A DNA stretch of 64,000 bases from Acidobacteriota bacterium (GCA_040752275.1 JBFMFH010000121.1:10849-74848); one strand, 5' to 3'; counted from the first letter of the stretch, positions 31,462 to 59,353 are shown. Made by a program: numbers and translations. The notes: generated by a model from the letters alone, not told the origin.

Positions 31462-34122
31462 GTGGTGTCGGGCTCTCTGGGAGTAGCCATCGTGGGTCTG
31501 ACGACGCTCGTGCGCAAGCTGTTCGGCCGCGATCAGTGGCGGCCGCTCATCGCCCAGCGCGATACGAAGGCCGCGCTGCGCCTCTCGTACCTCGCATTCA
31601 AGGACCTCATCACCTCGAACGACGAGCTGCTCGAAATCGTGGCCGACATCGAGCAGAAGCTGGAGACGGGCTCCCCCTTCGGGATGACCTACGTCCGGTT
31701 CCGGGCCGTCGCCTGCGCGACCCACACCTACCGGATGATTCTCTGCCTGGACAAGCTGTCCGCCCGGCGGTACCAAGAACTGCATTTCGTCTTTGCGGGC
31801 ATCCAGAAGGCCATCGAGCCCCTGCTCTCCGGCACCCGTCCCGCCCACGCCACGTGTCCGCTCGTCCTTCGTCTGTCGGACATCGACGCCACCAGTGCAG
31901 ACGACGCCGGCGGCAAGGCGGCGAACGTGGCCGAGGTGCGCAACCGGGCGAGGCTGCCGGTCCCCGACGGGTTCGTCGTGTCGACGACGGCCTTCGCCGC
32001 CTTCCTGGCTCACGAACAGCTCGGCGAGGACATTCGCGCGAAGCACGACGGCCTGGCGCCCGACGACCAGCAGTCCCTCCACGACGTGAGCGAAGAGCTG
32101 CAGGCGCTCATTTCGGCGCACCGCGTGCCCGGCCGCCTCGTGCAGTCCATCCTGGGCGCCTACGACGATCTCGCCGCCCGTTGTGGCACCAACCCGCGCG
32201 TGTCGGTGCGATCGAGCGCCGTGGGAGAGGACGGCGAGTTCTCCTTCGCAGGGCAGTACACCAGCGTATTGAACGTGGGGCGCGACGGCCTCGTCGATGC
32301 CTACCGCCGGGTGGTGGCCAGCCTCTATACGCCGCGCGCCATCTTCTACCGGGCGATACACGGCATCCCGGACGAACAGGCGGCCATGGCCGTGCTGTGC
32401 ATGGTACAGATCGACTCGGTCGCCAGCGGCGTGGCCTGTTCGGTCGACCCGGGCCGGCCGGACGCAGGCACGCTGCTCATCACGGGGGCCTGGGGCCTCG
32501 GCATCACGACCGTCGGGGGGTCGGTCAGCCCCGACGTGTGGGAGGTGGCGCGCGCGGCGGGTACGCCCGTTCTTCGCGCCCGCCTCGGCGTCAAGGACAC
32601 GCGCGCCGACGCCAGTCCGGAGGGGGGCGTCGGCTTTCTCGAACTGCCGGAGTCCGTCACGTCGACCTACTGTCTCACCGACACCCAGGTGCGCGACCTG
32701 GCGGCCATCGTCCTCGCGGCCGAGGCCCACTACGGCAAGCCACAGGAGGTGGAATGGGCCCTGGACCGGGCCGGCCGCTTCGTCCTGCTGCAATCGCGGC
32801 CGCTGCACGTCCGCGCCGTCCCGGCAGCCGTGACCGATCTCGACGGCCACGCGGACGGGCATGCCCTGATTCTTACGGGGGCGTCGGCCTCGGCGGGGTG
32901 CGCGTCGGGGCCCGTCTACCACATGTCCGAGTCGGACGACACGTCGCGGTTCCCCGACAGGGCAGTGCTCGTGGCCCGGCACTCGTCGCCCAAGTACGTC
33001 AAGGTGATGGCGCGCGCGGCGGCCATCATCACGGACATCGGGGCCACCACCGGCCACATGGCCTCGCTAGCCCGGGAGTTCGGGGTGCCCGCCGTGCTCG
33101 ACACGCGGTCCGCGACGACGACGCTCGAGCCGGGACAGGTCGTCACGGTCGATGCCAACCGGGGGGCGGTCTACGAGGGACGGGTCGACTGCCTGTTGTC
33201 GGGCTCGGCGGCAGCACCGGCCCGGACGATGACAGGTACACCGACCTATGCGATCCTCCGCCAGGTGGCGGATCGCATCGCGCCCTTGACGCTGACCGAT
33301 CCGAAGAGCGTGAGCTTCCGGCCCGATCAGTGTCGTACCTTCCACGACATCGCCCGCTTCGCCCATGAGAAGGCCTTCGGCGAGATGTTCAGGATGAGCG
33401 ATCGCGTGGCCGACGTGTCGCATCGAGCCGTCAGGCTGGCGGAGCGGCTGCCCTTCGAGCTCCATCTGATCGACATCGGCGGCGGCATTGCCCAGAGTTC
33501 CCCAGGCGAGCCCGCGGTCAGGGCGGCGGCGATCGTGTCGGAGCCGATGGCGGCTCTGCTGCGGGGCATGATGAACCCGCAGCTGCGCTGGTGGGAGCCG
33601 CGGGGCATCTCGCTCTCCGGCTTCTTCGCGGTGGCGACCGAGGCGATGATGAACCCGGCCCACGATGCGGACCAGCGCCGATTGGGCGACAAGAGCTACG
33701 CGATCGTCGCCGAGTCGTACTGCAACTTCAGCTCGCGCATCGGCTACCATTTCGCCGCCGTGGATGCGTACTGTACCGATTCGCTCTCCAGGAACTACGT
33801 GAGCTTCCGTTTCAAGGGCGGCGCCGCCGATGACGCCCGGCGTGCGCGGCGTTGCGCCCTCATCGGGGAGGTCCTCAAGAAGCTCGACTTCCAGACCGAC
33901 CGCCGGGGCGATCTGGTGAACGCCCGCCTCCGCAAGTACCCGCGCGAGGCGCTTCTGGAACGCCTCGATCTGGTCGGCCGGCTCATCGTCGCCACCAGAC
34001 AGCTCGACATGCGGATGGGACGCGGCACTCCGGTTGATTGGTTCGTCCAGGCGTTCTTCGCCGGCAACTACCTCTTCGACCCGGAGCAGGGCCGGGCCGC
34101 GGCCGGAGGGTCTCCGCCGTGA
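31462..34122 (+). CDS. Atypical PpsA-like protein PpsL-1: novel N-domain + PPDK_N ATP-grasp + swivel phospho-His domain + novel C-domain
   Basis: GGKAANVAEV..LPVPDGFVV, VSVRSSAVGEDGEFSFAGQY, and swivel ITDIGATTGHMASLAREFGVPAV with the His codon at 33055-33057. The C-terminal ~300 aa show no PEP-utilizer TIM-barrel motifs. The start (GTG at 31462/31465) is approximate. Confidence 0.8.
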   Translation: MVSGSLGVAIVGLTTLVRKLFGRDQWRPLIAQRDTKAALRLSYLAFKDLITSNDELLEIVADIEQKLETGSPFGMTYVRFRAVACATHTYRMILCLDKLSARRYQELHFVFAGIQKAIEPLLSGTRPAHATCPLVLRLSDIDATSADDAGGKAANVAEVRNRARLPVPDGFVVSTTAFAAFLAHEQLGEDIRAKHDGLAPDDQQSLHDVSEELQALISAHRVPGRLVQSILGAYDDLAARCGTNPRVSVRSSAVGEDGEFSFAGQYTSVLNVGRDGLVDAYRRVVASLYTPRAIFYRAIHGIPDEQAAMAVLCMVQIDSVASGVACSVDPGRPDAGTLLITGAWGLGITTVGGSVSPDVWEVARAAGTPVLRARLGVKDTRADASPEGGVGFLELPESVTSTYCLTDTQVRDLAAIVLAAEAHYGKPQEVEWALDRAGRFVLLQSRPLHVRAVPAAVTDLDGHADGHALILTGASASAGCASGPVYHMSESDDTSRFPDRAVLVARHSSPKYVKVMARAAAIITDIGATTGHMASLAREFGVPAVLDTRSATTTLEPGQVVTVDANRGAVYEGRVDCLLSGSAAAPARTMTGTPTYAILRQVADRIAPLTLTDPKSVSFRPDQCRTFHDIARFAHEKAFGEMFRMSDRVADVSHRAVRLAERLPFELHLIDIGGGIAQSSPGEPAVRAAAIVSEPMAALLRGMMNPQLRWWEPRGISLSGFFAVATEAMMNPAHDADQRRLGDKSYAIVAESYCNFSSRIGYHFAAVDAYCTDSLSRNYVSFRFKGGAADDARRARRCALIGEVLKKLDFQTDRRGDLVNARLRKYPREALLERLDLVGRLIVATRQLDMRMGRGTPVDWFVQAFFAGNYLFDPEQGRAAAGGSPP

Positions 34123-36686
34123 GGATCGAGACGCTGGCCGACCGGCTGCGATCGCTGCGCCGCGCACCCCGGGTGCGGGCGGGCGTCCGGGAGAAGTACG
34201 CCGCCCTGAGCAGGCTCACCGCAGCCAACAACGCGGCGCTGGAGCTCGTCGCGGATCTCCAGCGCTCGGCCACCGGCGAGTTCGTCTTCGATGCCAACTA
34301 CCTGCGTACGGCGTCGGATCGGGCCCTGGCTTACGGGCGCGAGGTCGTCGAGGCGCTCGATATTCTGTCGGACGGACGTGAGCGCAGGCTCGGCGCGCTT
34401 CTCGAGCGCCTGTCCGCCGAGATCGGAAACGTGCTGCGTGACGACCGAAGCATCCCGGAGGGTCCCTACGTCCTCGACTTCAGCCGGATGAAGGGGGTCC
34501 CGGCGGACCTGCTCGGGGCCAAGGTGCGGCGCCTCGCGGAAATCCGCCTCGACGTGGGCGTGCCGGTGCCCGACGGCTTCGCCGTCACGAGCGCGGCCTG
34601 TCACGCGCTGCTGGTTCAGTCCGGATTGTGGGCGTCGATCCAGGCCACCATCCGCAGCCTCACGCTAATCGACAAGGCACGCCTGGCCCGCGCCAGCGGC
34701 GACATCCGAGCCCGCATCCTCGACACGCCGTGGCCTCGGGCCGTGGCGGCCGCCGTCCTCGAGGCATACGATGGGCTCGTCGCGCGGGCCGGACGCGAGT
34801 CGCCGCTGGTGTCGGTGCGGTCGAGCGCCGCCGACGAGGACGGCGAGTTCAGCTTCGCGGGCCAGTACGTCTCGGTCCTGAACGTCGACCGGAGCCGCCT
34901 CTTGCAGGCGTGCAGTGAGGTCGTTGCCAGTCAGTTCGGACCGCGCGCGGTCGTCTACTACAAGTCCCGGGGCCTCGAGAGCGCCCACCACCCCATGGCG
35001 ATCGGCATCGTGCTGATGATCGACGCCCTCGCGAGCGGCGTGCTCTACACCCGGTCTCCCGAGCGGCCAGGCGAGCAGACGATGCTCATCACCGGCACGT
35101 GGGGTCTCGGCCCGTCCACGGCTGACGGTACCGTAAGCCCCGACGTCATCCGTGTGTCGGCGAGACCCGGGCACGATATCGTCAGCTCGACCATCGCCCT
35201 CAAGCCTCGCATGCTGCTCACCCGCGAGGGCGGAGGCGTCATCGAGGTCGACGTGCCGGGCTGGATGCGCGAGCAGCCGTGCCTGACCCGGGCGCAGGTC
35301 GGGATGCTCGCGGCGTACGGATCGCGCCTCGAACGTCACTACGGCGGTCCTCAGGACGTCGAGTGGGCGGTCGACCGGGCTGAGCGGGTCCTGGTGCTGC
35401 AGTCACGCCCGCTGCGCACCGAGGAGCCACGTGCCTCGGCTCCGCTCCACGAACTGCGCAAGGGCCTGCCTCTGTTGCTCTCCGGCGGCATCATCGCGTC
35501 GACGGGCGTTGCTGCCGGGCCCGTTTCCGTGGTGGACGACACCGGGCCCTTCGACGTGCCGGCGGGAGCCGTGGTCGTGTCGCGGGCTGCGGTGCCGGCT
35601 CTCGCCGAAGTCGCGGATCGCGCGTCGGCCTTCGTGACCGAGGTCGGGTCGGTCGCCTGCCACCTGGCCACCGTGGCGCGCGAGTTCCGCATCCCGACCA
35701 TCGTCAACGCGGATGGCGCCAGGGCCGCGCTCAGGCCCGGTCAGGTCGTGACGGTCGACGCCGAGATGGGCCACGTCTACGAGGGGCGCATCGACGCGCT
35801 CCTGGCACTGACCGGAGCCAGGCAGCCCGATCGCGCGATGCTGCAGAGTCCGCTGTTCCGCAGGCTGGGATCGGTCCTGTCTCTCCTGGCGCCCCTGCAC
35901 CTGACCGATCCGAGGAGCCGGGACTTCAAGGCGTCCGGCTGCCAGACGCTGCACGACCTGCTGCGCTACGCGCACGAACGGGCCGTGCAGGAGATGTTCG
36001 TCGCGGGAGGCGAAGTGGCCGAGCTCGGCGCGTCCGTGAAGCTGGCCAGCGATCTGCCGCTCGACTTCTTCCTGGTGGACTTGGGCGGCGGCCTGGCGGG
36101 TGCGGGAGACGAGGACACCGTGACGCCGGAGGCGTTCCGCTGCCGACCGCTCCGGGCGATCTGGGCGGGGCTCGTCGCTGCGCCGTGGGCCGGTGGACCG
36201 GCTGTGGGCTTGGCGAGCCTGGGCTCTCTCCTCGTCACCGGCCTCTCGCGCCGCGAGCCGGCCGGCGGGCCTGAGGCCAACTACGTGCTCGTCACGGATA
36301 GCTACGTGAACATCAGCTTCCGGTTCGGGTTCCACTTCGCCCGAATCGACGCGTCGCTGTCGCAGGACTTCCGGACGAACTACGCCAGCGTGGTGTTTCA
36401 CGGAGGAGCCGCCGGCGCAGGCGGCCGCGAGCGGCGGCTGGACTTCATCGCCGGCGTGCTCGCCTCACGTCCGTGGACCGTCAGCCGCCGCGGCGACGCG
36501 CTGTTCGGTCGGGCGGACAACCTGCCGGACGCGGAGCTGTCGAAGGAACTCGAGACGCTCGGCCGTCTGCTGGTCGTGACGCGGCAGCTCGACACCAGAC
36601 TCGCCGACGACGAGGCGACGGCGCGTGCCGTGGCAGCGTTCGGCGCGGGCGATGACAGCCTGGGCCTCGACGTCACGGACGCGTGA
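34119..36686 (+). CDS. Atypical PpsA-like protein PpsL-2 (tandem paralogue)
   Basis: The GTG at 34119 overlaps the PpsL-1 stop (GTGA). LGAKVRRLAEI..VPVPDGFAV, VSVRSSAADEDGEFSFAGQY, and swivel TEVGSVACHLATVAREFRIPTI with the His codon at 35661-35663. Shares the C-domain motifs. Confidence 0.8.
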   Translation: MRIETLADRLRSLRRAPRVRAGVREKYAALSRLTAANNAALELVADLQRSATGEFVFDANYLRTASDRALAYGREVVEALDILSDGRERRLGALLERLSAEIGNVLRDDRSIPEGPYVLDFSRMKGVPADLLGAKVRRLAEIRLDVGVPVPDGFAVTSAACHALLVQSGLWASIQATIRSLTLIDKARLARASGDIRARILDTPWPRAVAAAVLEAYDGLVARAGRESPLVSVRSSAADEDGEFSFAGQYVSVLNVDRSRLLQACSEVVASQFGPRAVVYYKSRGLESAHHPMAIGIVLMIDALASGVLYTRSPERPGEQTMLITGTWGLGPSTADGTVSPDVIRVSARPGHDIVSSTIALKPRMLLTREGGGVIEVDVPGWMREQPCLTRAQVGMLAAYGSRLERHYGGPQDVEWAVDRAERVLVLQSRPLRTEEPRASAPLHELRKGLPLLLSGGIIASTGVAAGPVSVVDDTGPFDVPAGAVVVSRAAVPALAEVADRASAFVTEVGSVACHLATVAREFRIPTIVNADGARAALRPGQVVTVDAEMGHVYEGRIDALLALTGARQPDRAMLQSPLFRRLGSVLSLLAPLHLTDPRSRDFKASGCQTLHDLLRYAHERAVQEMFVAGGEVAELGASVKLASDLPLDFFLVDLGGGLAGAGDEDTVTPEAFRCRPLRAIWAGLVAAPWAGGPAVGLASLGSLLVTGLSRREPAGGPEANYVLVTDSYVNISFRFGFHFARIDASLSQDFRTNYASVVFHGGAAGAGGRERRLDFIAGVLASRPWTVSRRGDALFGRADNLPDAELSKELETLGRLLVVTRQLDTRLADDEATARAVAAFGAGDDSLGLDVTDA

Positions 36687-36695
36687 GGAACCGGT

Positions 36696-38525: not shown

Positions 38526-38537
38526 GGTCACAACACC

Positions 38538-38948
38538 GTGGGCGAGACGATTCTTGTTCTCGATGACGAACTCGACATGCTGCGGCTGCTGGAGACGATC
38601 ATCACCAGCCGCACCGGCCACTCGGTCGTCACGACCAACAATCCCCTTGAGCTGGAGGATCTGATGGCAGCCAGCCCGCCGTCGCTCGTGATCTCCGATC
38701 TGAAGATGCTCGGGCGGGACGGCCTGGAAGTGATCGAGACGGCACACCGGATCGATCCGACCCTGCCGGTTGTCATCATCACGGCGTACGGCAGCCTCGA
38801 ATCGGCGGAAGAGGCGATCCGCCAGGGCGCGTACGACTACATCACCAAGCCCTTCCGAAAGGAACAGGTGCTGATTGCGATCGAGCGGGCGCTCGAATGG
38901 CGGCATCTCACGCGGGAGAACCTGCGGCTGAAACAGGGGACCGCGTGA
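38538..38948 (+). CDS. Receiver-only response regulator, RR-2
   Basis: 136 aa. ILVLDDE, LVISDLKMLGRDG, DYITKPF. No output domain. Confidence 0.85.
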   Translation: MGETILVLDDELDMLRLLETIITSRTGHSVVTTNNPLELEDLMAASPPSLVISDLKMLGRDGLEVIETAHRIDPTLPVVIITAYGSLESAEEAIRQGAYDYITKPFRKEQVLIAIERALEWRHLTRENLRLKQGTA

Positions 38949-39116
38949 GGCGAGGTCCCCGTCCTCAAGACTCGCGGCCCAGCGGAGGACGGCCGCTGCT
39001 GCGGGGATGAAGACCCGAGGCTCAACCAACGAGGCACGCGCGAGGAGGCGGGGTCGTCTGACCCGGAGCCTGTGGTAGGATGCCCTCGATCGGTGGCCCC
39101 CGGACGGAGCGGACTC

Positions 39117-47314: not shown

Positions 47315-49900
47315 CTATGGCCCCGATGCCACGTCCGCCTGGTGCGGTCCGGCCTGTCGCGCGCCGGCTTGGCCGGTGTCAAACGAGTAGTTGCCGGCCA
47401 GGAACTGCTCGACGTACCACCGCACCGCGTCGTGCCCGGTCATGTACATGTCGAGCTGGCTCGCACAGGCCATGAGGCGCCCCAGCAGATCCAGCCGCGA
47501 TTCGGTGTCCCGGGCGGGCGCCTTCTTGAACCAGGCGTTGACGACGTCGCCACGACGGTCCGCGTGGAAGCCGAGCTTCGAGAGGCAGGCGTCCAGGAAG
47601 CAGGCTCGCAGGTTCCGCCGGGCGCGTGTGGCCCCACCACCCGCGAAGCGGAACGAGATGTAGTTCTGTCCCGGCACCTCGGAGACATACGCATCAACCA
47701 GCGTGAAGTGATACGCGAGCCTCGAGTTCAGGTTCATGTACTCCCGGCTCACCAGCAGGTAGCTCTTCTCGCCCAGCGCCCGCGTCGCCCCCATGGACGC
47801 CGACAGGCTGCCGGCCATGACCGAGGCCAGACCGCTGAAGCTGGCGCGCATGCCGCGATTCCAGTCGACGCTTGGGTGGGTCATCCCTCGCCAGATGGCC
47901 TGGAATGGCCGGCAGACAATCTGGGACGGGCGCACGACATCGGCCTCCGGACCGTCGGCCTCCATCCCGCCCCCGAGGTCCAGGACATGCAGATTGACGG
48001 GCGTCGGCGCCAGCAGGCGGCTGGCCCGATGCGCGCCGCGCTGAAGGGCCGCGTCATTAAGCGCAAACATGCCCTGGATGGCCTTCTCGTGGCAGAACCG
48101 CAGCACATCGTGGGCGCTTCGGCACCCCGCCGGGCGGAAATTCCACGCCGATGGCTCCAACAACCGCAGCGAGAGGAGCCGGCGCGTCAGCGGATCCCCA
48201 CCGGCCTCGCCATAACGATCAGCCACAGCCGAGGCCGGACCGGCCGCCGGAGGCCAGAGCGTCCCGGCGTAGACTCGGGCCTGCCCGGCGTCGAGGCTCA
48301 CGGCCTCGCCGTTCCGAACCCGATCGAGGGCACCCGCCATCTCAAACGCGGATGGCACCTTGAACTCACGCAACAGCGCGGCGCCATGGCCAGTCACGTT
48401 GCCCCATTCGGCCACCAGGCCGGCCAGCCGTGGCAGCACCTTCACGATCTCCGGCGTCGGCTGCCGCAGAAAGACGACAGATCCATGCGGCGTCTGGCCG
48501 AGCCGGCTGGCCTCATCGGCGACGAATGCCGGTCCGGATGTCCGCCCTGGGAAGACGGCCCGCCCTCCGGCCATGAGGGCTTCCTGCTGGACGCGACGGC
48601 GCACGGCCGTGTCACGATCGACGAGGGCGAGCGGCCGCGCCTGCAGGATCCAGATCTTGTCGGCCTCGTCGATCGCCCACTCGATGTCCTGAGGCTTGCC
48701 CGTGTGACGCTCGATCGCCAGCGCCCACAGCGCGAGGCCCGCGGCGTCTTGGTCGCTCAGGCTCGGGCGCTCTCGCTCAGCCGGACCCAGCGGCTCCCGT
48801 ACGACACGGCCATCGCTCGTCGCCACCGCCCGGTCACGTTTGGCGGCGACGCGACCCTCGACAATCCGGTGCGGCCTGCTGCGAAAGATGACGAAGAGGT
48901 CGGACGGAGCCACTCCACTGGCGATATCCAGGGCTAGCCCCCAGGTCGCGCTGATCAGGAGGGTGCCGGATCCAGGATCCCGTGGATCGCGTGTGTACAG
49001 AATGCCGGCGGACCGCGCCCGGATGACCGGCAGCACGAGCACCGCCATCGGCGTGTCGACCTCGGCGAGGCCGGTGGCCAGACGGTACGACAGGGCTCGC
49101 TCGCTGAACCGGCTCGCCACGACCTCGCGGTAGGCCTGAACCACCTGATGCGCCGGAGTGTTGATCCGGCTGTTGAACTGCCCGGCGAACGTCCGGCTTC
49201 CACCCTCGCCCACTGCACTCGACCTGACGGCCAACCCCAGTCCGTGCGATTGCAGCACGGCGGCGCGCTCCGCCAGCGCCACTTCGACGGCACGCGGGAC
49301 GGGCGCGTTCAGAACCGTGTCTGTCAGCTCCCTCGACATCCGGCCCAGACCCTCCAGGTCGTCCGGATCCCACCGGCGTTCGGCGTTGCGGATCCGCTTC
49401 CAGTACGGCAGGCCGAAAAACTGACGATACGCCTCCGTGGTCAGCACATAGCCATCGGGCACCGGCGCCCCGACCTTGTTCCGGGCCTCGCCGAGCGCCG
49501 CCGCCTTGTCCCCGACCTCGGCCGCTTCTGCCAGCCCAATCTCGGACATCCGAACGGCGAGGCGCGGCATCACGCGTCCCTGGCGCTGAGCCAGGTACTG
49601 TTCGACCTCCTGTCGCTGCTGCCGAACGGCGGCCTCGAGCCTGGGGTAGGGCCGGCCTTCGAGTGCCGACAGGGCGGAGATGGCCCCCCGGACCTTCTCG
49701 AAGACCGCGCCGACACGGTTCCCCAGCACATCAAGGCGCGGGGGTACATAGAGCGAGTCCTCCTGGATGCCGGCCAGCAGCTCGAGGGCCTCGTTGTTGA
49801 GTGCGATCACCTTGCGCCAGTTCTCGTACGTGTGCTGCAGCCGCGCCTCCGGTGGCGCGTCCCGCGTCTCGACCGCTTGTCTCCGCCTCCGAAACTGCAT
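47315..49900 (-). CDS. Atypical PpsA-like protein PpsL-3
   Basis: Real start MQFRRRRQAVE at 49900 within the 1406-aa track ORF. VGDKAAALGEA..VPDGYVL, AVRSSAVGEGGSRTFAGQF, and swivel AEWGNVTGHGAALLREFKVPS with the His codon at 48388-48386. Shares the N- and C-domain motifs. Confidence 0.8.
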   Translation of the reverse strand: MQFRRRRQAVETRDAPPEARLQHTYENWRKVIALNNEALELLAGIQEDSLYVPPRLDVLGNRVGAVFEKVRGAISALSALEGRPYPRLEAAVRQQRQEVEQYLAQRQGRVMPRLAVRMSEIGLAEAAEVGDKAAALGEARNKVGAPVPDGYVLTTEAYRQFFGLPYWKRIRNAERRWDPDDLEGLGRMSRELTDTVLNAPVPRAVEVALAERAAVLQSHGLGLAVRSSAVGEGGSRTFAGQFNSRINTPAHQVVQAYREVVASRFSERALSYRLATGLAEVDTPMAVLVLPVIRARSAGILYTRDPRDPGSGTLLISATWGLALDIASGVAPSDLFVIFRSRPHRIVEGRVAAKRDRAVATSDGRVVREPLGPAERERPSLSDQDAAGLALWALAIERHTGKPQDIEWAIDEADKIWILQARPLALVDRDTAVRRRVQQEALMAGGRAVFPGRTSGPAFVADEASRLGQTPHGSVVFLRQPTPEIVKVLPRLAGLVAEWGNVTGHGAALLREFKVPSAFEMAGALDRVRNGEAVSLDAGQARVYAGTLWPPAAGPASAVADRYGEAGGDPLTRRLLSLRLLEPSAWNFRPAGCRSAHDVLRFCHEKAIQGMFALNDAALQRGAHRASRLLAPTPVNLHVLDLGGGMEADGPEADVVRPSQIVCRPFQAIWRGMTHPSVDWNRGMRASFSGLASVMAGSLSASMGATRALGEKSYLLVSREYMNLNSRLAYHFTLVDAYVSEVPGQNYISFRFAGGGATRARRNLRACFLDACLSKLGFHADRRGDVVNAWFKKAPARDTESRLDLLGRLMACASQLDMYMTGHDAVRWYVEQFLAGNYSFDTGQAGARQAGPHQADVASGP

Positions 49901-49920
49901 CGTCGTCGCACGACCTCTGC

Positions 49921-51606: not shown

Positions 51607-51771
51607 GAGCACCTCCTCCGGGAAACGGGAAGCTGGCGGGGGCGTCTGAATCACCGCGCGGGACGAGGCGCGGGGCCGGCGTTGGCCGGCAATTCGGGGG
51701 ACCTTCGCTTTCAGCCTGAGACTAGAGCGATGCGGGGGCCGTGTCAAGGACTCCTGGCAATTGAACGAACG

Positions 51772-51800
51772 ACGATAATGCCGGCAGGCTTGGTAGACAA
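51772..51800 (-). promoter_or_regulatory. Candidate sigma-70 promoter (TTGTCT-N17-TATCGT) for the YeiH-like operon, in a divergent AT-richer region
   Basis: The complement of 51795-51800 gives TTGTCT and the complement of 51772-51777 gives TATCGT. This is the same -10 hexamer as the candidate at 27898. Confidence 0.2.
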
Positions 51801-51904
51801 ACACGCTCCAATTGACTCACGTGCTAAGCTTGGGGCGACTGCAGGTGCGACTCCGGCGCGCCTCCCGCTGCGCGCCGCACCTGTCCCGCCCCTTCCCGAA
51901 ACCG

Positions 51905-52156
51905 ATGGCTCCCTGGGGTCCACCCATCATGCCGGGTGACTGGACACCCATCCAAATCGGGATTGTCGATCAGATCGAACGGATCGCCCGCCGGCGCCCG
52001 TGCACACCCGCGCGGGTCTTCAGTGACACAGCTGGCGTCGTGGGGATCGACCGGCACGATGTGCTCGACCGTGGCGCAGGGCTGGACCTCGTCACCGGCA
52101 CCGAACGGGAGCCGCGCTTCGGCCTCACAGGCGAAGCAGGCCCGGTGTGGTCATGA
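51905..52156 (+). CDS. Possible small protein (75-83 aa) translationally coupled to PpsL-4
   Basis: Part of track ORF 51812..52156. ATG candidates at 51905 and 51929. Its TGA (52154-52156) overlaps the PpsL-4 ATG (52153) as ATGA. High third-position GC. I recognise no family resemblance. Confidence 0.3.
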   Translation: MAPWGPPIMPGDWTPIQIGIVDQIERIARRRPCTPARVFSDTAGVVGIDRHDVLDRGAGLDLVTGTEREPRFGLTGEAGPVWS

Positions 52157-54711
52157 AACTGGCAGATCTGCGGCGGGCGTTTCGCCGCCGGGAGCGGCCT
52201 CCCCTCGAATTGCCGGCACGCGTGTCCTACTGCCGTGAGGTGCTGCAAGCCAACAACGCGGCCCTCGGCTATCTGGCCCAGATCCAGGAGACGCTCGCCG
52301 GCACGGACCCGCTCCCGGCTGGTCAGGTCCGTCGCCTCGTGGCCGGAGTGATGACCCAGACGTTCCGGATGATCGTCAACCTGAGCCGGATCACTGGAGG
52401 GCGTTTCGGCGAAGTGGAGTCGCGGTTCCGGCAGATCAAGGCGTCACTGGCCAGGAGTGTCGAGGTGCCGGCCGACGCCGGCGACGTGGGCTACACCGTC
52501 GGCCTCGATCGGCTCGACGCGTCGTTCGCGGAGGTGGTCGGCCAGAAGAGCGCATTCCTCGGAGAGGCCCGCCGGTGGCTGCCGGCGCACGTGCCGCACG
52601 GATTCGCCACGTCGGTGACCGCCTACCGGGCCTTCATGGACCACGACGGCCTCGGCGCGCGGGTTGCCGAGATCCTCGAGCGGGGCGGGATGGGGGATGT
52701 CGCAAGCTGTTTCGAGCTCTCGGCGGACATCGTACGTCTCGTCGAAGGCGCTCGGGTCCCCGCCGACGTGGCCGGCGCCATCGCAGCATCCCTCGACGCC
52801 ATTCCTGGAGGAGATGCGCGGCGCTTCGCCGTGCGATCGAGCGCCCTCTTGGAGGGCGGGGCCGAGATGTCCTTCGCCGGGCAGTATCGGTCGTGCCTGA
52901 ACGTCCCTCCCGACGGCGTGGTCGACGCCTTCAAGCGGGTGATCGCCAGCAAGTACTCGCCCGAGGCCATTTCGTATCGCGCACTGCGGGGGTTCGACGA
53001 CGAAGACGTCGCCATGTGTTGCTGTGTCATCGAGATGGTCGACGCCGTGGCCGCCGGGGTCCTCTACAGCTCGTGTCAGGGTGAGACAGAGCCGACGACG
53101 CTCGTCCAGGCCGTGAGAGGCCTCGGCCTCGCGGCCGTGGATGGGTCGGCAGAGCCGGACTCGTACACGGCCGGCTGCCAGACGAAGCGCATGCTCGGCA
53201 CGAGGTTGGGGCGCCAGGCCTCTCGCATCGTGGGCGCGCCGCACGAGGGAACGGTGCGCGAGGCGATCGCGCCCGGAGACGGTTCGTCTCCAGTGCTCGA
53301 CGAGTCACAGGTGCTCGGGCTTGCGGGGCTCGCCTGGGCCCTGCAACCCCGTCTCGGCACCCCCCTCGACATGGAATGGGCAATCGGGCGAGACCGGCGT
53401 TTCGTCATCCTCCAGCTGAGGCCGCAGCCCGTGGAGATGGTGCGAGGCGCGAAGCCGCTCCAGCGGCGCGTGGTTGGCTACCGGATCCTGTTGGAAGGGG
53501 GATCGGTCGTCTCCCCCGGGGTGGCGTCCGGCCCCGTCTGCCACGTCGAGAGCGATCTCGACATGCTCAGGTGCGGGAAGGGCGCCGTCCTGGTGACCAC
53601 CGAAGCGAGCCCGCGCCTGGCCGTCCTCCTGCCCAGAGTGGCCGCCGTCGTCGCAGACCTCGGAGAAGTGACCGGGCACCTGGCTGCTGTCGCACGCGAG
53701 CTGAAGGTGCCGGCCCTGTTCGCCACCCGCGCGGCGAGTACGGCGCTCGCAGCAGGCGCGATGGCGACGGTCGATGCCGAAGCAGCCGTTGTGTACGAGG
53801 GCCGCGTGGTCGAACTGGTCGATGTGCCGCCGCCGCCGAGCCTCGTCCGGACGATCGATCCGAACAGGGCGCTTCTCGCGTCCGTCGCCGACCGGATCGT
53901 ACCGCTGACGCTGAAGGACCGGCTGGCCAGCGGCTACACGCCTGCGCGATGCCGGTCGCTGCACGACATCATCCGGTTCTGCCATCAGGCCACGATCGAG
54001 GCCATCTTCGATCTTGGTGACCGGGCACTGCACCGCAACGAAGGGCTGCGGCGCCTGGTCACCGACGTGCCAATCGATTGCCGGTTGTTCGATCTCGGCG
54101 GCGGGTTCAGCGACAACTTGCCGGCGGGCGACATCCGCATCGAGGACGTCACGTGCCGCCCCATGCGGGCCTTGTGGCGGGGGATGACCGATCCCCGCGT
54201 GGTGTGGCGGGCCTCGCGGCCAGTGTCCTTGACGGGACTGGCGTCCGCGCTGGTCAACTACAACCTCGACCACGACCAGCGGATGCGGAATCTGGGTGAG
54301 CCGTCCTACGCGTTCGTCACCGCCGATTACCTGAATCTGAACTCACGGGTTGGCTATCATTTCACCACCGTGGACGCGCGACTGGGCGAGGCGTCCGAAT
54401 CCAACTACGCGTCCCTGCGCTTCGTGGGCGGCTCGACGGGCGTCGACCAGCGGTCCCGGCGCGCGGCGCTGATCCGGCGCCTGCTCGAGGCCTACCGGTT
54501 CGAGACGGACTGCCGCGTGGATCTCGTCAATGCCCGAATCCGTCACCGGCCACCGGCCGAGATGGAGGAGGCACTCGCACGGGTCGGCCGCCTGCTCGGC
54601 TACGTCAATCACCTCGACATGGCCCTGACCTCTGAGGCCGCTGTTGCCGAGTACGAAGCGGCGTTCCTCCGGGGCGACTACCACTTCAAGGGGAGCAGTC
54701 TCCATGACTGA
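52153..54711 (+). CDS. Atypical PpsA-like protein PpsL-4
   Basis: VGQKSAFLGEA..VPHGFAT, AVRSSALLEGGAEMSFAGQY, and swivel ADLGEVTGHLAAVARELKVPAL with the His codon at 53677-53679. Shares the N- and C-domain motifs. The start is ATG 52153 or GTG 52147. Confidence 0.8.
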   Translation: MKLADLRRAFRRRERPPLELPARVSYCREVLQANNAALGYLAQIQETLAGTDPLPAGQVRRLVAGVMTQTFRMIVNLSRITGGRFGEVESRFRQIKASLARSVEVPADAGDVGYTVGLDRLDASFAEVVGQKSAFLGEARRWLPAHVPHGFATSVTAYRAFMDHDGLGARVAEILERGGMGDVASCFELSADIVRLVEGARVPADVAGAIAASLDAIPGGDARRFAVRSSALLEGGAEMSFAGQYRSCLNVPPDGVVDAFKRVIASKYSPEAISYRALRGFDDEDVAMCCCVIEMVDAVAAGVLYSSCQGETEPTTLVQAVRGLGLAAVDGSAEPDSYTAGCQTKRMLGTRLGRQASRIVGAPHEGTVREAIAPGDGSSPVLDESQVLGLAGLAWALQPRLGTPLDMEWAIGRDRRFVILQLRPQPVEMVRGAKPLQRRVVGYRILLEGGSVVSPGVASGPVCHVESDLDMLRCGKGAVLVTTEASPRLAVLLPRVAAVVADLGEVTGHLAAVARELKVPALFATRAASTALAAGAMATVDAEAAVVYEGRVVELVDVPPPPSLVRTIDPNRALLASVADRIVPLTLKDRLASGYTPARCRSLHDIIRFCHQATIEAIFDLGDRALHRNEGLRRLVTDVPIDCRLFDLGGGFSDNLPAGDIRIEDVTCRPMRALWRGMTDPRVVWRASRPVSLTGLASALVNYNLDHDQRMRNLGEPSYAFVTADYLNLNSRVGYHFTTVDARLGEASESNYASLRFVGGSTGVDQRSRRAALIRRLLEAYRFETDCRVDLVNARIRHRPPAEMEEALARVGRLLGYVNHLDMALTSEAAVAEYEAAFLRGDYHFKGSSLHD

Positions 54712-56386
54712 GCGCATCAGCCGGCCGTACCGCCGCCTGGCGAGCCAGATGCTGATGGTGCTACTCGCGTTCGGACTCGTTCCGCTCGTGGTGATGGGGA
54801 TCGCGGGGTTCGCCGCCCAACTCAACGCCGTCGAGACTCGGACGCGAAACGTCCTCGAGGCCATGGTCAAGAACCGCCGGGCCACCGTCGAGCTCTTCCT
54901 CGAAGAGAAGCGCCGGCAGCTGGAGTTGGTGGCGGCGGCGGCGCCCGTGAGCGAGCTGGGCAAGCCGGCGGTGATCGAAATGCTGCGGGACCAGTTGCGC
55001 AGCGAACACGGAGCGATTGTCGATCTCGGCCTTATCGACGACACCGGCCGCCATGTCGTGTATGTGGGGCCCTACAGCCTGCAGGACCTGAACTACTCGG
55101 ACCAGCCGTGGTTCGAGCAGGTCATGGTCCGCGGCCACTACGAGAGCGACATCTTCATGGGGTTCCGCCGGTTTCCGCACATGGTTATGGCGGTCAAGAA
55201 GCGCGAACAGGGGCGGGTGTGGATACTGCGGGCCACTATCGACACCGACCAGCTCAGCGACTTGGTCCGGGAGGGCGGGCTCGAGTCGGGCGCCGACGTC
55301 TTCGTGCTCAACCGCGCCGGCGAGTACCAGACGCGCTACTCGGCGGAACACCGGCTCATGGAGCGGGCAGATCTCCCGGTTCCGCCCCTCCACTCGGGCG
55401 TGCGGGTGATCGACTACGCTAAGCACGGCGCGCGCGAGTTCGTCGCCACGGCGTGGCTCCGCAATGACAACTGGGTCCTGGTGGCCCGGCAGCGCGTGCC
55501 GGGATTCCTGGCGCTTGTCGTCTCGAGCCCGATCGTCACGATCGTGTTCGTGGCGGGCCTCCTGCTCGTGCCGCCGTTGTCTCTCTTCGTGGCCCGCCGC
55601 CGCCTGAGCCAGATCCGCGGCCTCGAGCGGGAGCGGGCGGAACTCTACCAGTCGGTGGCTCAGTCCGAGAAGATGGCCACCATCGGCCGGATGGCCGCAT
55701 CGATCGCCCATGAGATCAACAATCCGTTCGCAATCATCCAGGAGCAGGTCGGAGTGTTGACCGACGGACTGGCCGACGCAGGCGGGGTACCGGACGCCGA
55801 GTTGCGCGACCGCCTCCGGAAGATCGAGGCCCAGATCCAGCGCGGCCGGGGCGTGACCCATCGGCTGCTGGGCTTCTCGCGGCGTCTGGGCCCTGGCGTC
55901 GAGCCGATTGACGTCGCCGAGGCACTCAACGAGACGCTGAACTTCTTGGCCAAGGAGGCCGAGGCCTCCAACATCCAGATCGTCCGCGACTACGACAAGG
56001 ACGCCCCGCTCATCCGCTCCAGTGTGGCGCAAATGCAGCAGGTCTTCCTGAACCTGATCAATAACGCGATCGACGCCGTCGGGCGCGATGGTGAGATCCG
56101 ACTGTCAGTGAGACGGGACGGCGATGGTGTCGCCGTCGCCGTCGCCGACAACGGTCCGGGCATCCCCGCCGCACTGCGCGACCGGGTCTTCGACCCGTTC
56201 TTCTCGACCAAGACGGGCCCGACGCACAACGCGGGTCTGGGTTTGGCCATCTGCCGCGAAACAATGTTGGCGCTTGGCGGCCGGATCGAGATCGACAGCC
56301 GGATCGAGAGAGGGACACGGTTCATTGTCTGGTTCCCGACGATACCGCCCGGTGAGACGAACCGGCTTGCGCGCGCGCATGCGTGA
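54704..56386 (+). CDS. Sensor histidine kinase with a Cache/PDC-like extracytoplasmic domain (tentative), HK-4
   Basis: The ATG at 54704 overlaps the PpsL-4 stop by 8 nt. TM1, a ~250-aa sensor (DDTGRHVVYVGPY...DQPWFEQV...VFVLNRAGEY), then TM2. H-box ASIAHEINNPFAI. VADNGPGIP. Confidence 0.85.
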   Translation: MTERISRPYRRLASQMLMVLLAFGLVPLVVMGIAGFAAQLNAVETRTRNVLEAMVKNRRATVELFLEEKRRQLELVAAAAPVSELGKPAVIEMLRDQLRSEHGAIVDLGLIDDTGRHVVYVGPYSLQDLNYSDQPWFEQVMVRGHYESDIFMGFRRFPHMVMAVKKREQGRVWILRATIDTDQLSDLVREGGLESGADVFVLNRAGEYQTRYSAEHRLMERADLPVPPLHSGVRVIDYAKHGAREFVATAWLRNDNWVLVARQRVPGFLALVVSSPIVTIVFVAGLLLVPPLSLFVARRRLSQIRGLERERAELYQSVAQSEKMATIGRMAASIAHEINNPFAIIQEQVGVLTDGLADAGGVPDAELRDRLRKIEAQIQRGRGVTHRLLGFSRRLGPGVEPIDVAEALNETLNFLAKEAEASNIQIVRDYDKDAPLIRSSVAQMQQVFLNLINNAIDAVGRDGEIRLSVRRDGDGVAVAVADNGPGIPAALRDRVFDPFFSTKTGPTHNAGLGLAICRETMLALGGRIEIDSRIERGTRFIVWFPTIPPGETNRLARAHA

Positions 56387-56426
56387 GGCGGTTTTCGAAA
56401 CAACCCGCGAGAGGTGGAGGTACGAC

Positions 56427-56813
56427 ATGGCCGATCTGAGGTTGCTCCTGGTCGATGACGAGCCGGACTTCCTCGAGCCGCTCTGCACGCGGCTGACCCG
56501 CCGGCGGGTCGCGTGCGCCACCGCCGCCAGCGGGGAGGAGGCCCTGCAGGCGCTCGCGGACAGCCGTTTCGACTGCGCAGTCGTCGACGTCAAGATGCCA
56601 GGCATGGACGGCCTCGAGCTGCTGCGTCGGATCCGGCGTGACCACCCGGGCACCCCAGTGGTGCTGCTCACGGGTCACGCCTCGGTCGAGATGGGCGTGC
56701 AGGGCATGGAGCTCGGCGCCTTCGACTACCTGCTCAAGCCCGTCGATCTCGACGAGCTGCTCGACGTCGTGCGTCGGGCCGCCGAACAGCCCCGCGAACC
56801 CGGTTTGCCGTGA
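56427..56813 (+). CDS. Receiver-only response regulator, RR-4
   Basis: MADLRLLLVDDEPDF with GGTGGAGG upstream. AVVDVKMPGMDG, DYLLKP. Its stop overlaps the PpsL-5 start (GTGA). Confidence 0.88.
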   Translation: MADLRLLLVDDEPDFLEPLCTRLTRRRVACATAASGEEALQALADSRFDCAVVDVKMPGMDGLELLRRIRRDHPGTPVVLLTGHASVEMGVQGMELGAFDYLLKPVDLDELLDVVRRAAEQPREPGLP

Positions 56814-59353
56814 CACCACGTCCGGACTCGGGCGGGACGGGCGGCCGGCTCAAGGCGGCATGGCAGGCCCTCGTCTCCCGCGCCGCGCAGGCGCCTCCCA
56901 CTGCCGACATGGCGCGGATTCGGCTGATGTACGAGCGGTTTCGCGAGATCCTGGCCGGCAATGACGCCACACTCCAGCTGATTGCCGAAATCGATGAGTG
57001 TCTCGCCGGACGGGCGGTCTTCACCCTCGAGAGCCTCGTGCGGCAGATTCACAAGGCGGAGATGCACGTCTTCGTCATGGTGAAGAACCTGAACCTGCTC
57101 TCCGGCAACGCCCACGGCGGCCTCTACGCGAGATTGCGGGAACTCTCGGCCGAGATCGCGGCGATGAGCCCCTTGTCTGGGGACGCGCCGGAGCAGGCTG
57201 AGGTCATGGCGCTCGAGGATATCCGCCTCGACCGGGCGTTGCTGGTCGGATCGAAAATCGCGCGGCTAGGCGAGGCCAGGGCGCGTGCGGGCGTCACCGT
57301 GCCCGAGGGGTTTGCGATCACCACGGCTGCGTTCTCCGCCTTCATGTCGGCGAACGGCCTCTGGGAGCGCGCGGCGCATCTCGAGGACTTGGTGCAGACC
57401 CGGGGCGACGCGTCCGCCGTGGCGCTCGCCTGCCAGGAAGTGCAGCGGGCGATTCTGGGGGCGCCCGTCCCGGAACGCATCGTCGGAACCATCACCGGCG
57501 CATTTGATCACCTCGCCGAGGGGACCGACCTGCGCGTTGCCATGCGGTCGAGCGCTGTTGGCGAGGATACCTACGTGTCACATGCGGGCCAGTACCATAC
57601 CGAGTTGGGCGTGAGGCGCGAAGGCTTGCTCGACGCGTATCGCGCGGTCATCGCCAGCGCCTATGGCCGTGCGGCCATCTTGTACCGATTCGAACACAAG
57701 ATGGGCACCCGCGAGACGGCCATGGCCGTCGGCTGCCTCCGCATGCTCGACCCCCGGTGCAGCGGCGTCATGTTCACGCGCCGGCCCGACGCGCCAGACA
57801 TCGACGCGGTGGTTGTGGCTGCGGTGCCCGGCCTCGCATCCGCCCTGGTCGCCGGCGAGCAGGACGCACACGTCTGGATCACCGGGGACGATCCCCGGAC
57901 ACCGGCGAGCACGCTGCTCACACCGGACGACCTCTCCGGTCTGTCTGCCATCGCACGCCGCCTCGAATCGTGTCTCGGCGGGCCGCAGGAAGTGGAGTGG
58001 GCCATCGAACGGGCAGGCCCAATCGTCGTCGTCCAGAGCCGCGCGCTCATCGCGACGCAGCGCACGCCCGTTCAGGACACGCCCATCAGCGACGAACCGC
58101 CGCTCCTGGCCGGCGGGCTGACCGCGTGCCCCGGTGTTGGGGCGGGACGCGTGGTGCAGGTGGCGCGAGAGGATGATCTCGATGCGTTTCCTGACCGGGG
58201 CGTGCTCGTCGCCCGGCAGGCGCTCCCGATGTACTCGCGGATCTTGTCTCGGTGCGCCGCCATCGTTACGGACATCGGATCGCCGGCGGGGCACATGGCC
58301 AGCCTGGCCCGCGAGTACGGCGTTCCGGCTCTCGTCGGCTGCGGGGAGGCCACGTCGGTGCTGCTGGCGGGAATGCCGGTCACCGTGGACGCCACGCGGG
58401 CACAGGTGTTCTCCGGATTGCTGGCCGCGTCGGAGTCCGCGCCGGCGCGCCCGGCGCCTGCGGCAGACGCGCCGGCCGTTCAGGCGCTCAGACGGATCGC
58501 CCGCCTGATCACCCCGCTCTCGCTCACCGATCCCGCCAATCCGGTTTTCCGCCCCGCGTCCTGCCAGTCACTGCACGACATCGCGCGCTATGTGCACGAG
58601 AAGACCTTTGAGGTTGTGTTCCACTGGGGCGATGTGAACTGGGGCGATACGCGCCATGCCCGCCGGTTGCAGGTGCATCTGCCGTTGACGATCGATGTCA
58701 TCGACGTCGGGGGCGGGATCAGAGACGCCGGCGCGCGCCGCGATGACGAGCCGCACGCAGGGCCGGCGGCGGGAAGCGCCGGCGCGCCGGGCATCGGTGT
58801 CGAGGATGTGCTCTCAGTGCCCTTCCGCGCGCTGCTCTCCGGCATGCTGGACGCGCGCATCCGGTGGGATCGGCCCCGGCCGCTGTCGGCCCGCGGGTTT
58901 CTGGCCGTGGTTGGGGAACGGATGGCCGGTTTGCCCGGCGAAGCGCTCGGGGTGGGCGGTGCGTCCTACGCTATCGTGTCGGATCGGTACCTGAACTTCT
59001 CGACCAAGGCCGGCTATCACTTCGCCACCATCGACACCTACTGCGGGCACAGCGTCAACAAGAACTACATCCACTTCCGTTTCGCGGGCGGCGCCGCGGA
59101 CGGCGCCCGTCGAGAGCGGCGGGTGCGCTTGATCGCCAGTGTCCTTGCCAGCCTCGATTTCAAAGTGCAGACGCGAGGCGACCTCCTGGTGGCTCGGCTG
59201 GGTCAGTTCGACCAGGCGACGCTGCTCGCGAGACTGGAGGACATGGGTCGGCTCTGCATGTGCACGCGTCAGCTCGACATGCTGATGGACACGGAAGGCA
59301 GCCCCGAGTTCTTCGCCCGGGCGTTTCTCGCCGGCCAGCTCGATCGCTTCTGA
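56810..59353 (+). CDS. Atypical PpsA-like protein PpsL-5
   Basis: VGSKIARLGEA..VPEGFAI, AMRSSAVGEDTYVSHAGQY, and swivel TDIGSPAGHMASLAREYGVPAL with the His codon at 58292-58294. Shares the N- and C-domain motifs. Confidence 0.8.
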   Translation: MTPRPDSGGTGGRLKAAWQALVSRAAQAPPTADMARIRLMYERFREILAGNDATLQLIAEIDECLAGRAVFTLESLVRQIHKAEMHVFVMVKNLNLLSGNAHGGLYARLRELSAEIAAMSPLSGDAPEQAEVMALEDIRLDRALLVGSKIARLGEARARAGVTVPEGFAITTAAFSAFMSANGLWERAAHLEDLVQTRGDASAVALACQEVQRAILGAPVPERIVGTITGAFDHLAEGTDLRVAMRSSAVGEDTYVSHAGQYHTELGVRREGLLDAYRAVIASAYGRAAILYRFEHKMGTRETAMAVGCLRMLDPRCSGVMFTRRPDAPDIDAVVVAAVPGLASALVAGEQDAHVWITGDDPRTPASTLLTPDDLSGLSAIARRLESCLGGPQEVEWAIERAGPIVVVQSRALIATQRTPVQDTPISDEPPLLAGGLTACPGVGAGRVVQVAREDDLDAFPDRGVLVARQALPMYSRILSRCAAIVTDIGSPAGHMASLAREYGVPALVGCGEATSVLLAGMPVTVDATRAQVFSGLLAASESAPARPAPAADAPAVQALRRIARLITPLSLTDPANPVFRPASCQSLHDIARYVHEKTFEVVFHWGDVNWGDTRHARRLQVHLPLTIDVIDVGGGIRDAGARRDDEPHAGPAAGSAGAPGIGVEDVLSVPFRALLSGMLDARIRWDRPRPLSARGFLAVVGERMAGLPGEALGVGGASYAIVSDRYLNFSTKAGYHFATIDTYCGHSVNKNYIHFRFAGGAADGARRERRVRLIASVLASLDFKVQTRGDLLVARLGQFDQATLLARLEDMGRLCMCTRQLDMLMDTEGSPEFFARAFLAGQLDRF

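Follow-up and report, generated by a model that had tools for sequence, protein, structure and literature searches.

Enzymes that join an ATP-grasp domain to a mobile swivel domain carrying a catalytic histidine constitute an engine that has repeatedly found new uses, acting on pyruvate, glucans, rifampin and phenol and in prodiginine assembly. Here we analyze five paralogous genes built around this engine in a 64,000-nucleotide stretch of DNA from an Acidobacteriota bacterium (GCA_040752275.1, JBFMFH010000121.1:10849-74848; hereafter the window, with positions counted from its first nucleotide), and we coin the name PpsL for the five encoded proteins and for the family to which they belong. 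Judged by sequence, PpsL is a widespread branch of the phosphoenolpyruvate (PEP)-utilising, or swivel-His, superfamily, and the strongest clue to its function is that its genes are linked in conserved fashion to those for histidine kinases, stand-alone receivers and TauE proteins. The best overall explanation, to which we assign a probability of about 0.55, is that PpsL proteins are ATP-driven swivel-His phosphotransferases, which probably serve two-component pathways as effector kinases in the control of sulfur-oxyanion transport.

One of the closest described architectures is that of PEP synthase, PpsA (EC 2.7.9.2; E. coli b1702; PDB 2ols, 8a8e, 9dae), with which PpsL shares an ATP-grasp followed by the swivel His over ~470 aa. 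The two differ in that the C-terminal TIM barrel of PpsA gives way in PpsL to an unrelated ~290-aa alpha/beta domain, in that PpsL adds an N-terminal three-helix domain of ~125-155 aa, and in that PpsL genes are part of signalling and transporter operons, not of gluconeogenic surroundings. Rifampin phosphotransferase and PRK06241-type proteins, as well as PigC/RedH, also combine an ATP-grasp and a swivel His with a non-pyruvate substrate domain, but in these enzymes that domain is central and the swivel C-terminal, whereas PpsL has its swivel in the centre and the new domain at the C-terminal end, and the acceptor domains share no sequence similarity. Enzyme I of the PEP-dependent phosphotransferase system (PTS) and EI-Ntr (PtsP) resemble PpsL in the swivel only; these swivel-His proteins belong to a regulatory phosphorelay that touches transporters and two-component kinases, and they take their phosphate from PEP, bound by a TIM barrel, and lack an ATP-grasp, the opposite of PpsL on both counts. 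Plant glucan, water dikinase is paired with SEX4 and LSF2, phosphatases of the dual-specificity (DSP) family that remove the phosphate it installs, and a DSP gene likewise follows PpsL in one of the cluster types described below; the plant enzyme differs in its domain order and carbohydrate-binding modules, and no glucan-related genes occur near PpsL.

The remaining point of comparison is genetic. Korte et al. 2014 described a Desulfovibrio "nitrate cluster" (DVU0251-DVU0245/Dde_0597-Dde_0605) of genes that they call poorly annotated, in which DVU0246/Dde_0604 is given by InterPro domains only (PPDK PEP/pyruvate-binding, PEP-utilising mobile domain, ATP-grasp), and in which transposon insertions in the TauE, hypothetical, response regulator (RR) and dikinase-like genes allow growth at a nitrate concentration (100 mM) inhibitory to the wild type (PMC4001038). 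Cluster mutants of strain G20 were also mildly impaired on thiosulfate, and the authors proposed a leaky thiosulfate transporter (PMC4001038). DVU0246 is known by this genetic phenotype only, and our literature search on DVU0245-0251/Dde_0597-0605 found nothing later than that study.

Domain architecture of the five PpsL proteins

The window, with a G+C content of 65-71%, encodes the following PpsL proteins:

31462..34122, plus strand: PpsL-A, 886 aa; N-terminal helical domain aa 1-~130, PPDK_N aa 149-451, swivel aa 497-568 with the His532 codon at 33055-33057, C-domain aa 588-886 (33223-34119)
34119..36686, plus strand: PpsL-B; swivel His codon 35661-35663, C-domain 35832-36683
47315..49900, minus strand: PpsL-C, 861 aa, ATG at 49900 within a longer open reading frame (ORF); swivel His codon 48386-48388, C-domain 47318-48229
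52147..54711, plus strand: PpsL-D, 854 aa; N-domain 52147-52527, swivel His codon 53677-53679, C-domain 53842-54708
56810..59353, plus strand: PpsL-E, 847 aa, GTG start; swivel His codon 58292-58294, C-domain 58454-59350

All five homologous ORFs put forward in the original prediction were recovered and can be aligned over their full length (MAFFT), PpsL-B to -E being 35-41% identical to PpsL-A end to end with 90 invariant columns. The ORF of PpsL-B opens at 34038, and its likely start is the GTG at 34119, since this codon overlaps the PpsL-A stop (GTGA, 34119-34122) and follows a Shine-Dalgarno-like GGAGGG (34105-34110) placed 9 nt upstream. The same GTGA overlap joins the receiver gene RR_4 to PpsL-E (56810-56813), and both overlaps imply translational coupling.

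Pfam matches in all five proteins comprise PPDK_N (PF01326; 189-277 bits) and the PEP-utilizers swivel domain (PF00391; 35-71 bits), with no other family, the PEP/pyruvate-binding PF02896 included, at E<=0.1, which is the outcome the original prediction had anticipated. The nucleotide-binding signatures it had listed are borne out by these scores and by the invariance of the motifs G.K, RSSA..E, AGQ, EWA and Q.R in the five proteins. The ATP-grasp of PpsL-E carries a deletion of ~28 aa. The swivel motif G-x-x-x-x-H-x-A...RE...P of the superfamily is conserved together with its His, the codon of which was located in each copy. In BLASTP, PpsL-A129-600 aligns with residues 4-489 of E. coli PpsA at 31% identity, pairing His532 with PpsA His421, and no similarity to PpsA extends beyond the swivel. 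By homology, PpsL is shown to possess an intact PpsA-type ATP-grasp, predicted to bind ATP, and a central swivel with the putative catalytic His.

Scores against family models place PpsL outside the characterised enzymes. The PpsA equivalog model NF005057 yields 232-331 bits against a cutoff of 598, covering only model positions ~6-469 of 798, and TIGR01418 (PpsA) yields 224-319 bits against 739.75; TIGR01828 (pyruvate, phosphate dikinase; PPDK) yields 16-62 bits against 843 and matches the swivel region alone. The ATP-grasp of PpsL scores 127-220 bits with rifampin phosphotransferase/PRK06241-type models, aligning only with positions 2-311 of 864 in the rifampin phosphotransferase-type model, and NF041857 for this group returns 161-212 bits against a cutoff of 999. 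The NF041857 match is split into two stretches, as befits the domain order that the original prediction had set apart from rifampin phosphotransferase. The nearest solved structures (PpsA 8a8e, 9dae and 2ols; rifampin phosphotransferase 5hv1 and 5fbs) likewise cover only the first two modules, 5hv1 and 5fbs aligning with PpsL-A132-450 only and PPDK chains in the PDB with PpsL-A472-628 only.

The segment that follows the swivel is a conserved domain of ~285-300 aa. The C-domains of the four other proteins are 35-43% identical to that of PpsL-A, with 44 invariant columns, and an alignment of 113 homologues retains 8 columns without any variation and 31 with hardly any; among the conserved positions are D26, C37, H41, D42, H48, E49, D84, Y166, Y175, H176, D181, G199, G200, R207, R210, D230, R259 and D262. 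Each of the C-terminal motifs listed in the original prediction is present in the alignment (LTDP...C..HD..R..HE, DxGGG, Y..V..Y.N..R.GYHF..D...NY..FRF.GG...R..R and GRL...QLD). No Pfam family matches the domain in 16 members at E<=1, and no PDB chain matches its profile (best E 0.6). An AlphaFold2 model built from the 113-sequence alignment (predicted local distance difference test, pLDDT, 88.4; predicted template-modelling score, pTM, 0.79) predicts helices packed against antiparallel beta-hairpins, with strands at 69-72, 80-86, 158-163, 166-173, 176-183, 192-199, 224-228 and 231-237, rather than a (beta/alpha)8 barrel. Foldseek finds nothing in the PDB for this model at E<=1e-3 (best E 0.034, TM-score 0.18), and we dismissed its weak matches to arginine kinase, the C-Ala domain and RecJ as noise (TM-score <=0.2, E >=0.03). 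The FRFxGG segment and the R..R helix after it, with the conserved His and Arg residues, look like an anion or phosphoryl site.

Three candidate identities for the C-domain were rejected. As a diverged PEP/pyruvate TIM barrel it reaches a probability of 0.5% in hhalign against the C-terminal 312 aa of E. coli PpsA, and the Pfam results, NCBIfam coverage, BLASTP and AlphaFold2 secondary structure contradict this identity as well. As a GHKL/HisKA-like core, a candidate prompted by the DxGGG motif and by weak Foldseek matches to DesK, it reaches 0.3% against the histidine-kinase cores encoded in the window, and none of the five proteins has a Pfam match to the dimerisation and histidine phosphotransfer (DHp) domain or GHKL core of two-component histidine kinases. 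As a duplicate of the family's own ATP-grasp it reaches 0.1%. The proposal that a conserved domain of its own takes the place of the TIM barrel is thus supported by Pfam, hhalign, BLASTP, AlphaFold, PDB and Foldseek results alike; the predicted structure reveals no canonical PEP/pyruvate domain in the C-terminal part, and no close match to a biochemically characterised enzyme emerged.

At the opposite end, an N-terminal extension is present as originally proposed, but it spans ~125-155 aa rather than the 170-190 aa first estimated, with PPDK_N beginning at aa 128-157 and PpsL-A residue 129 aligned with PpsA residue 4. Conservation of the N-domain extends throughout the family (>=90% for L40 and A44), and the domain is modelled in PpsL-D as a three-helix bundle with a core pLDDT of ~90. 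It was considered and rejected as a histidine phosphotransfer (Hpt)-like domain: it has no conserved His, and Foldseek returns only generic helical hairpins at E~1.

These results bear directly on the possibility that the PpsL proteins are gluconeogenic PEP synthase or PPDK isoenzymes, or reverse-acting ones that rebuild ATP from the AMP and pyrophosphate (PPi) of sulfate activation. Database names such as "pyruvate, water dikinase" favour this possibility, as do an H+-pyrophosphatase (H+-PPase) gene beside PpsL-C and the presence of sat and aprBA in the window. A proteomics study of Dissulfuribacter thermophilus (2026) lends it further support, reporting that the adjacent DITHS69_1988-1990 rise in thiosulfate disproportionation, DITHS69_1988 as a "PEP synthase" up 3.4 log2-fold and interpreted as gluconeogenesis, DITHS69_1989 as a "TM protein co-occurring with TauE" and DITHS69_1990 as TauE (PMC13490349). 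Judged by its gene position beside the TauE module, DITHS69_1988 is probably a PpsL-family protein. Against such an assignment, the PEP/pyruvate-binding domain is missing by every test run, scores are broadly below half of the PpsA equivalog cutoffs, and HppA lies near only 6 of the 112 family genes surveyed below. We consider these isoenzyme readings scarcely credible, and a genuine PEP synthase or PPDK function effectively excluded.

Family distribution and relation to the nitrate cluster

A single-sequence search with the C-domain returned 19 matches through a word index, and a profile combined with an exhaustive search of 1.84 billion representatives clustered at 50% identity was needed to reveal the family: 1,523 of them match at E<=1e-3, and at the stricter E<=1e-30 there are still 765. 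Full-length members typically have 820-900 aa, with the C-domain at ~570-860. The distinct PpsA-like architecture put forward in the original prediction therefore stands, but as a large existing family and not as a feature confined to this genome. At least 577 PpsL loci were confirmed in GTDB species-representative genomes, and the best 80 of these come from Acidobacteriota (59-69% identical), many Desulfobacterota, Nitrospirota, Chloroflexota, Sumerlaeota and Planctomycetota. Members are named in databases "PEP/pyruvate-binding domain-containing protein", "PEP-utilizing enzyme", "pyruvate, water dikinase", "pyruvate, phosphate dikinase" or "phosphoenolpyruvate synthase". Literature searches on the PPDK_N/PEP-utilizers Pfam pair and on Alph_Pro_TM found nothing relevant beyond Korte et al. 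2014, and the architecture, C-domain and mechanism of PpsL appear to be undescribed.

Gene context was surveyed in 80 loci with 112 PpsL genes, for which neighbours are given as raw counts. A histidine kinase or RR is directly adjacent on the same strand for 47 of the 112, another PpsL is directly adjacent for 42, and within 5 kb lie TauE genes for 50 and Cytidylate_kin2 genes for 18. Two types of cluster recur. The first, found in Dissulfurimicrobium hydrothermale and Desulfovibrio sp. TomC, runs small protein - TauE - Alph_Pro_TM - PpsL - RR - (HK - NtrC) - PpsL - PpsL, where HK is a histidine kinase, and includes a Metallophos phosphatase. The second, found in Nitratidesulfovibrio sp. HK-II, Oleidesulfovibrio sp. 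and one metagenome contig, runs DUF169 - TauE - hypothetical - Phosphonate-bd - HK - 119-aa RR - PpsL - protein tyrosine phosphatase (PTP)/DSP phosphatase, and reproduces the published nitrate cluster gene for gene, its 360-bp receiver included.

PpsL-A aligns end to end with the Nitratidesulfovibrio sp. HK-II protein, P0320, at 32% identity over 873 columns (E 1e-103), and the C-domain profile also matches the homologue P0253 (E 4e-72). The PpsL family thus apparently includes DVU0246/Dde_0604, which resembles the window proteins in full-length architecture (via P0320) and in its partners TauE, HK and stand-alone RR. The DVU0246 cluster differs in its PtxB-like binding protein, DUF169 and PTP, all of which are missing from the window. 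In a quick neighbour-joining tree the five window copies occupy deep, separate branches outside the nitrate-cluster clade, and because of this branching we regard them as old paralogues of DVU0246 rather than orthologues.

Several variants depart from the common architecture. A degenerate subfamily named "PEP-utilizing enzyme" (P0251 of Desulfovibrio sp. TomC, 8001-10394 of its locus; P0236-P0239, P0247 and P0263) has no PPDK_N match and keeps the swivel His and C-domain motifs intact. In the middle TomC paralogue the ATP-grasp motifs have changed from GGK to GLA, from RSSA..ED to AYAAGPRE and from EWA to SWV, and in both of the two clusters examined (TomC and Dissulfurimicrobium) the degenerate protein adjoins or sits between ATP-grasp-competent paralogues. 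Having lost these motifs while keeping its swivel His, the TomC paralogue suggests loading in trans within a multi-PpsL assembly. Fusions comprise a C-terminal receiver on P0210 (partial), nearest to RR_3 of the window at 36-47% identity; an N-terminal domain of low-molecular-weight PTP (LMW-PTP)/ArsC type on P0114 (1248 aa); and an additional ~200-aa beta-rich C-terminal domain, without a Pfam match, on P0109, P0124 and P0132 (1053-1072 aa). Receivers fused C-terminally, on P0210 and others, keep the canonical acidic pocket and the T and K residues.

We rejected two "split" PpsL genes (P0008 and P0187, at loci L087 and L088 of ENA long-read assemblies) as true two-subunit versions; they are frameshifted, most likely as artefacts, because other genes nearby, such as a split Usp, are also fragmented. 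Both loci also carry TauE with a small PF28216 (DVU0150-family) gene.

Gene neighbourhood and candidate acceptors

Within the window, the two plus-strand PpsL operons, HK_1-RR_1-A-B-HK_2-RR_2-RR_3-HK_3 (30008-41186) and D-HK_4-RR_4-E (52147-59353), contain only histidine kinases, stand-alone receivers and PpsL genes, and every receiver in the window stands alone without an output domain. The neighbouring genes are as follows:

25942-26808, minus strand: Alph_Pro_TM protein
26789-27712, minus strand: TauE_1
28460-29485, minus strand: TauE_2
29507-30010, minus strand: small transmembrane (TM) protein, immediately upstream of TauE_2
30008-31069, plus strand: HK_1, histidine kinase upstream of PpsL-A in the same operon
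31020-31448, plus strand: RR_1, stand-alone receiver directly upstream of PpsL-A
36696-38525, plus strand: HK_2 (dCache), directly downstream of PpsL-B
38526-38948, plus strand: RR_2, receiver downstream of HK_2
38949-39515, plus strand: RR_3, receiver after RR_2
39573-41186, plus strand: HK_3 (HAMP), last gene of the PpsL-A/B operon
41195-42739, minus strand: TauE_3, in the block downstream of PpsL-C
42370-43923, minus strand: Cytidylate_kin2 (PF13189) protein with a long tail ending in TM helices
44219-46435, minus strand: H+-PPase
46472-47299, minus strand: Cytidylate_kin2+BON protein, directly downstream of PpsL-C
50104-51804, minus strand: Cons_hypoth698 (YeiH-type) membrane protein, directly upstream of PpsL-C
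54644-56386, plus strand: HK_4 (dCache), between PpsL-D and PpsL-E
56124-56813, plus strand: RR_4, stand-alone receiver between HK_4 and PpsL-E
59379-59855, minus strand: lipoprotein-like 158-aa protein, downstream of TauE_4
59856-60887, minus strand: TauE_4, convergent with PpsL-E
60915-61490, minus strand: small TM protein, immediately upstream of TauE_4
61235-61765, minus strand: RR_5, fifth stand-alone receiver
61766-62572, minus strand: Cytidylate_kin2+BON protein

The window thus holds four TauE/SafE (TSUP) membrane proteins and three paralogous Cytidylate_kin2 P-loop proteins. Each Cytidylate_kin2 gene adjoins TauE or the H+-PPase, and two encode a C-terminal BON domain. The two small TM proteins are paralogous, and each combines one TM helix with a signal-like segment and the motif KLVxVADTR; neither they nor the lipoprotein-like 158-aa ORF has a Pfam match.

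The left half of the window is occupied by a near-complete dissimilatory sulfate-reduction island (339-25941, minus strand), and its right end carries sirohaem synthesis genes. Between these two, within the sulfate-reduction region, the PpsL module is expanded to five deep-branching copies. The island contains:

within 339-25941, minus strand: hemA
1828-4373, minus strand: DsrMK-like pair
4386-5657, minus strand: sat
7314-12318, minus strand: NrfD/Fer4/CCG/NarI-type dsrPOKM genes, of dsrMK(J)OP type
13266-14927, minus strand: DsrL-like gene
15301-17605, minus strand: dsrBA
17602-22337, minus strand: qmo-type genes (qmoAB-type and a possible qmoC without a Pfam match)
23551-25941, minus strand: aprAB

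No dsrJ was identified among the dsrMK(J)OP-type genes of the window. An RsbRD_N-domain protein (12315-12860, minus strand) lies between the dsrM-like and DsrL-like genes, and a 101-aa ORF with very high third-position G+C and no Pfam match (14995-15300, minus strand) separates dsrB from the DsrL-like gene, at a place where one might look for a gene of DsrD or DsrC type.

Taken together, architecture and context suggest a mechanism in which the swivel His would be loaded from ATP, taking by analogy with PpsA the beta-phosphate via a pyrophosphoryl-His intermediate, and the swivel would then swing to the ~290-aa C-domain. A pocket rich in Arg, His, Asp and Cys, formed by C..HD..R..HE, with which a long helix starts, DxGGG, Y.N, GYHF..D, NY and FRF.GG...R..R, would hold the phospho-acceptor where pyruvate would otherwise sit. 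PpsL would in this way provide the enzymatic output of pathways that have a sensor kinase and an output-less stand-alone receiver and that would control TauE/TSUP-type transporters of sulfur oxyanions. Operons limited to HK, output-less RR and PpsL, together with Desulfovibrio RR and PpsL mutants that phenocopy the TauE mutant, suggest that PpsL acts as an effector toward the TauE transporter. Recurrent Cys-based and metallo-phosphatase neighbours and one LMW-PTP fusion point to a phosphomonoester or phosphoramidate product rather than phospho-Asp; the acceptor is most likely a target forming such a bond, be it a transporter-module protein or a small ligand, and in many relatives a co-encoded PTP/DSP, LMW-PTP or metallophosphatase would reset the signal.

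The same operons could be explained by a dikinase-type histidine kinase that passes phosphate from the swivel His to a receiver Asp, the C-domain docking the receiver or sensing a ligand. A precedent is PTS Enzyme I, which carries a swivel His and has a protein as its phosphorylation target. RR genes directly adjoin PpsL genes in many phyla, RR_4 is translationally coupled to PpsL-E, and the C-terminal receiver fusions recall hybrid kinases, where C-terminal receivers are usually acceptors. Against such a role stand a PpsL-A/B operon that already has three histidine kinases for its three receivers, and co-encoded PTP/DSP and LMW-PTP phosphatases, which act on phosphomonoesters or phospho-Arg and not on acyl-phosphates. 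The invariant polar residues of the C-domain are moreover enzyme-like, with no similarity to DHp or Hpt, and the N-domain lacks a conserved His. We judge phosphorylation of a receiver Asp to be unlikely.

A metabolite acceptor, possibly a compound transported by TauE or a nucleotide, would instead make PpsL a small-molecule dikinase likened to rifampin phosphotransferase, phenylphosphate synthase and glucan, water dikinase, with the two-component genes merely regulating it or co-locating with it. To our knowledge all characterised ATP-grasp/swivel-His enzymes, Enzyme I aside, act on small molecules or glucans. The conserved Arg/His/Gly-rich pocket would fit an anionic ligand, P-loop Cytidylate_kin2 genes recur nearby, and the DSP gene after PpsL in the nitrate-cluster type recalls the plant DSP-family phosphatases that counteract glucan, water dikinase. 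The family is not, however, accompanied by biosynthetic or catabolic genes, and operons of HK, RR and PpsL alone leave the stand-alone receivers no other output. The receiver fusions argue for direct coupling at the protein level, and sets of three to five paralogues within one operon, among them one whose ATP-grasp is dead, resemble a signalling assembly more than a metabolic step. A small-molecule dikinase seems to us improbable.

Several observations weigh against the effector-kinase explanation. Histidine kinases and RRs are abundant in these genomes, so that chance is expected to account for some of the adjacency, and no PTP or Metallophos gene was found beside the five window copies. The equation of P0320/P0315 with DVU0246/Dde_0604 was drawn from gene order and the 360-bp RR length, not from the DVU0246 sequence, and DVU0246 is annotated as only 744 aa. 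The two strains disagree on the phosphatase mutant, which had a pooled fitness of -6.0 in DvH and +2.1 in G20 (PMC4001038). Homology alone underlies the assumed use of the beta- rather than the gamma-phosphate, the C-domain may serve in sensing or oligomerisation instead of being a catalytic acceptor site, and no biochemical characterisation of any PpsL member was found in the literature. With these points considered, we hold it very likely that PpsL is an ATP-dependent swivel-His phosphotransferase with a non-PEP acceptor domain, belongs to the DVU0246 family and is functionally tied to two-component systems and TauE; the specific effector-kinase model with a non-Asp acceptor is put forward tentatively.

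Implications for sulfur-cycling bacteria

With PpsL the PpsA domain order gains another acceptor module, whose fold is predicted with confidence and for which no relative could be detected; the family is also tightly linked to two-component signalling. Its more than 1,500 clusters at 50% identity are found mainly in lineages that reduce sulfate or otherwise cycle sulfur, and since its members are routinely misnamed PEP synthase or PPDK, metabolic reconstructions and readings of omics data can go astray, the interpretation of DITHS69_1988 being a likely example (PMC13490349). More doubtfully, PpsL may represent a new class of signalling kinase, in which the ATP-grasp/swivel-His engine would phosphorylate a protein (a receiver or a component of a TauE complex) and several paralogues, including the one whose ATP-grasp is dead, would make up a phosphorelay; in sulfate reducers this relay would gate, at the post-translational level, the transport of sulfur oxyanions (thiosulfate, sulfite or sulfate). 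PpsL offers a testable handle on the mechanism of the Desulfovibrio nitrate cluster, unexplained since 2014, and on the control of the abundant TSUP/TauE transporters of sulfate reducers.

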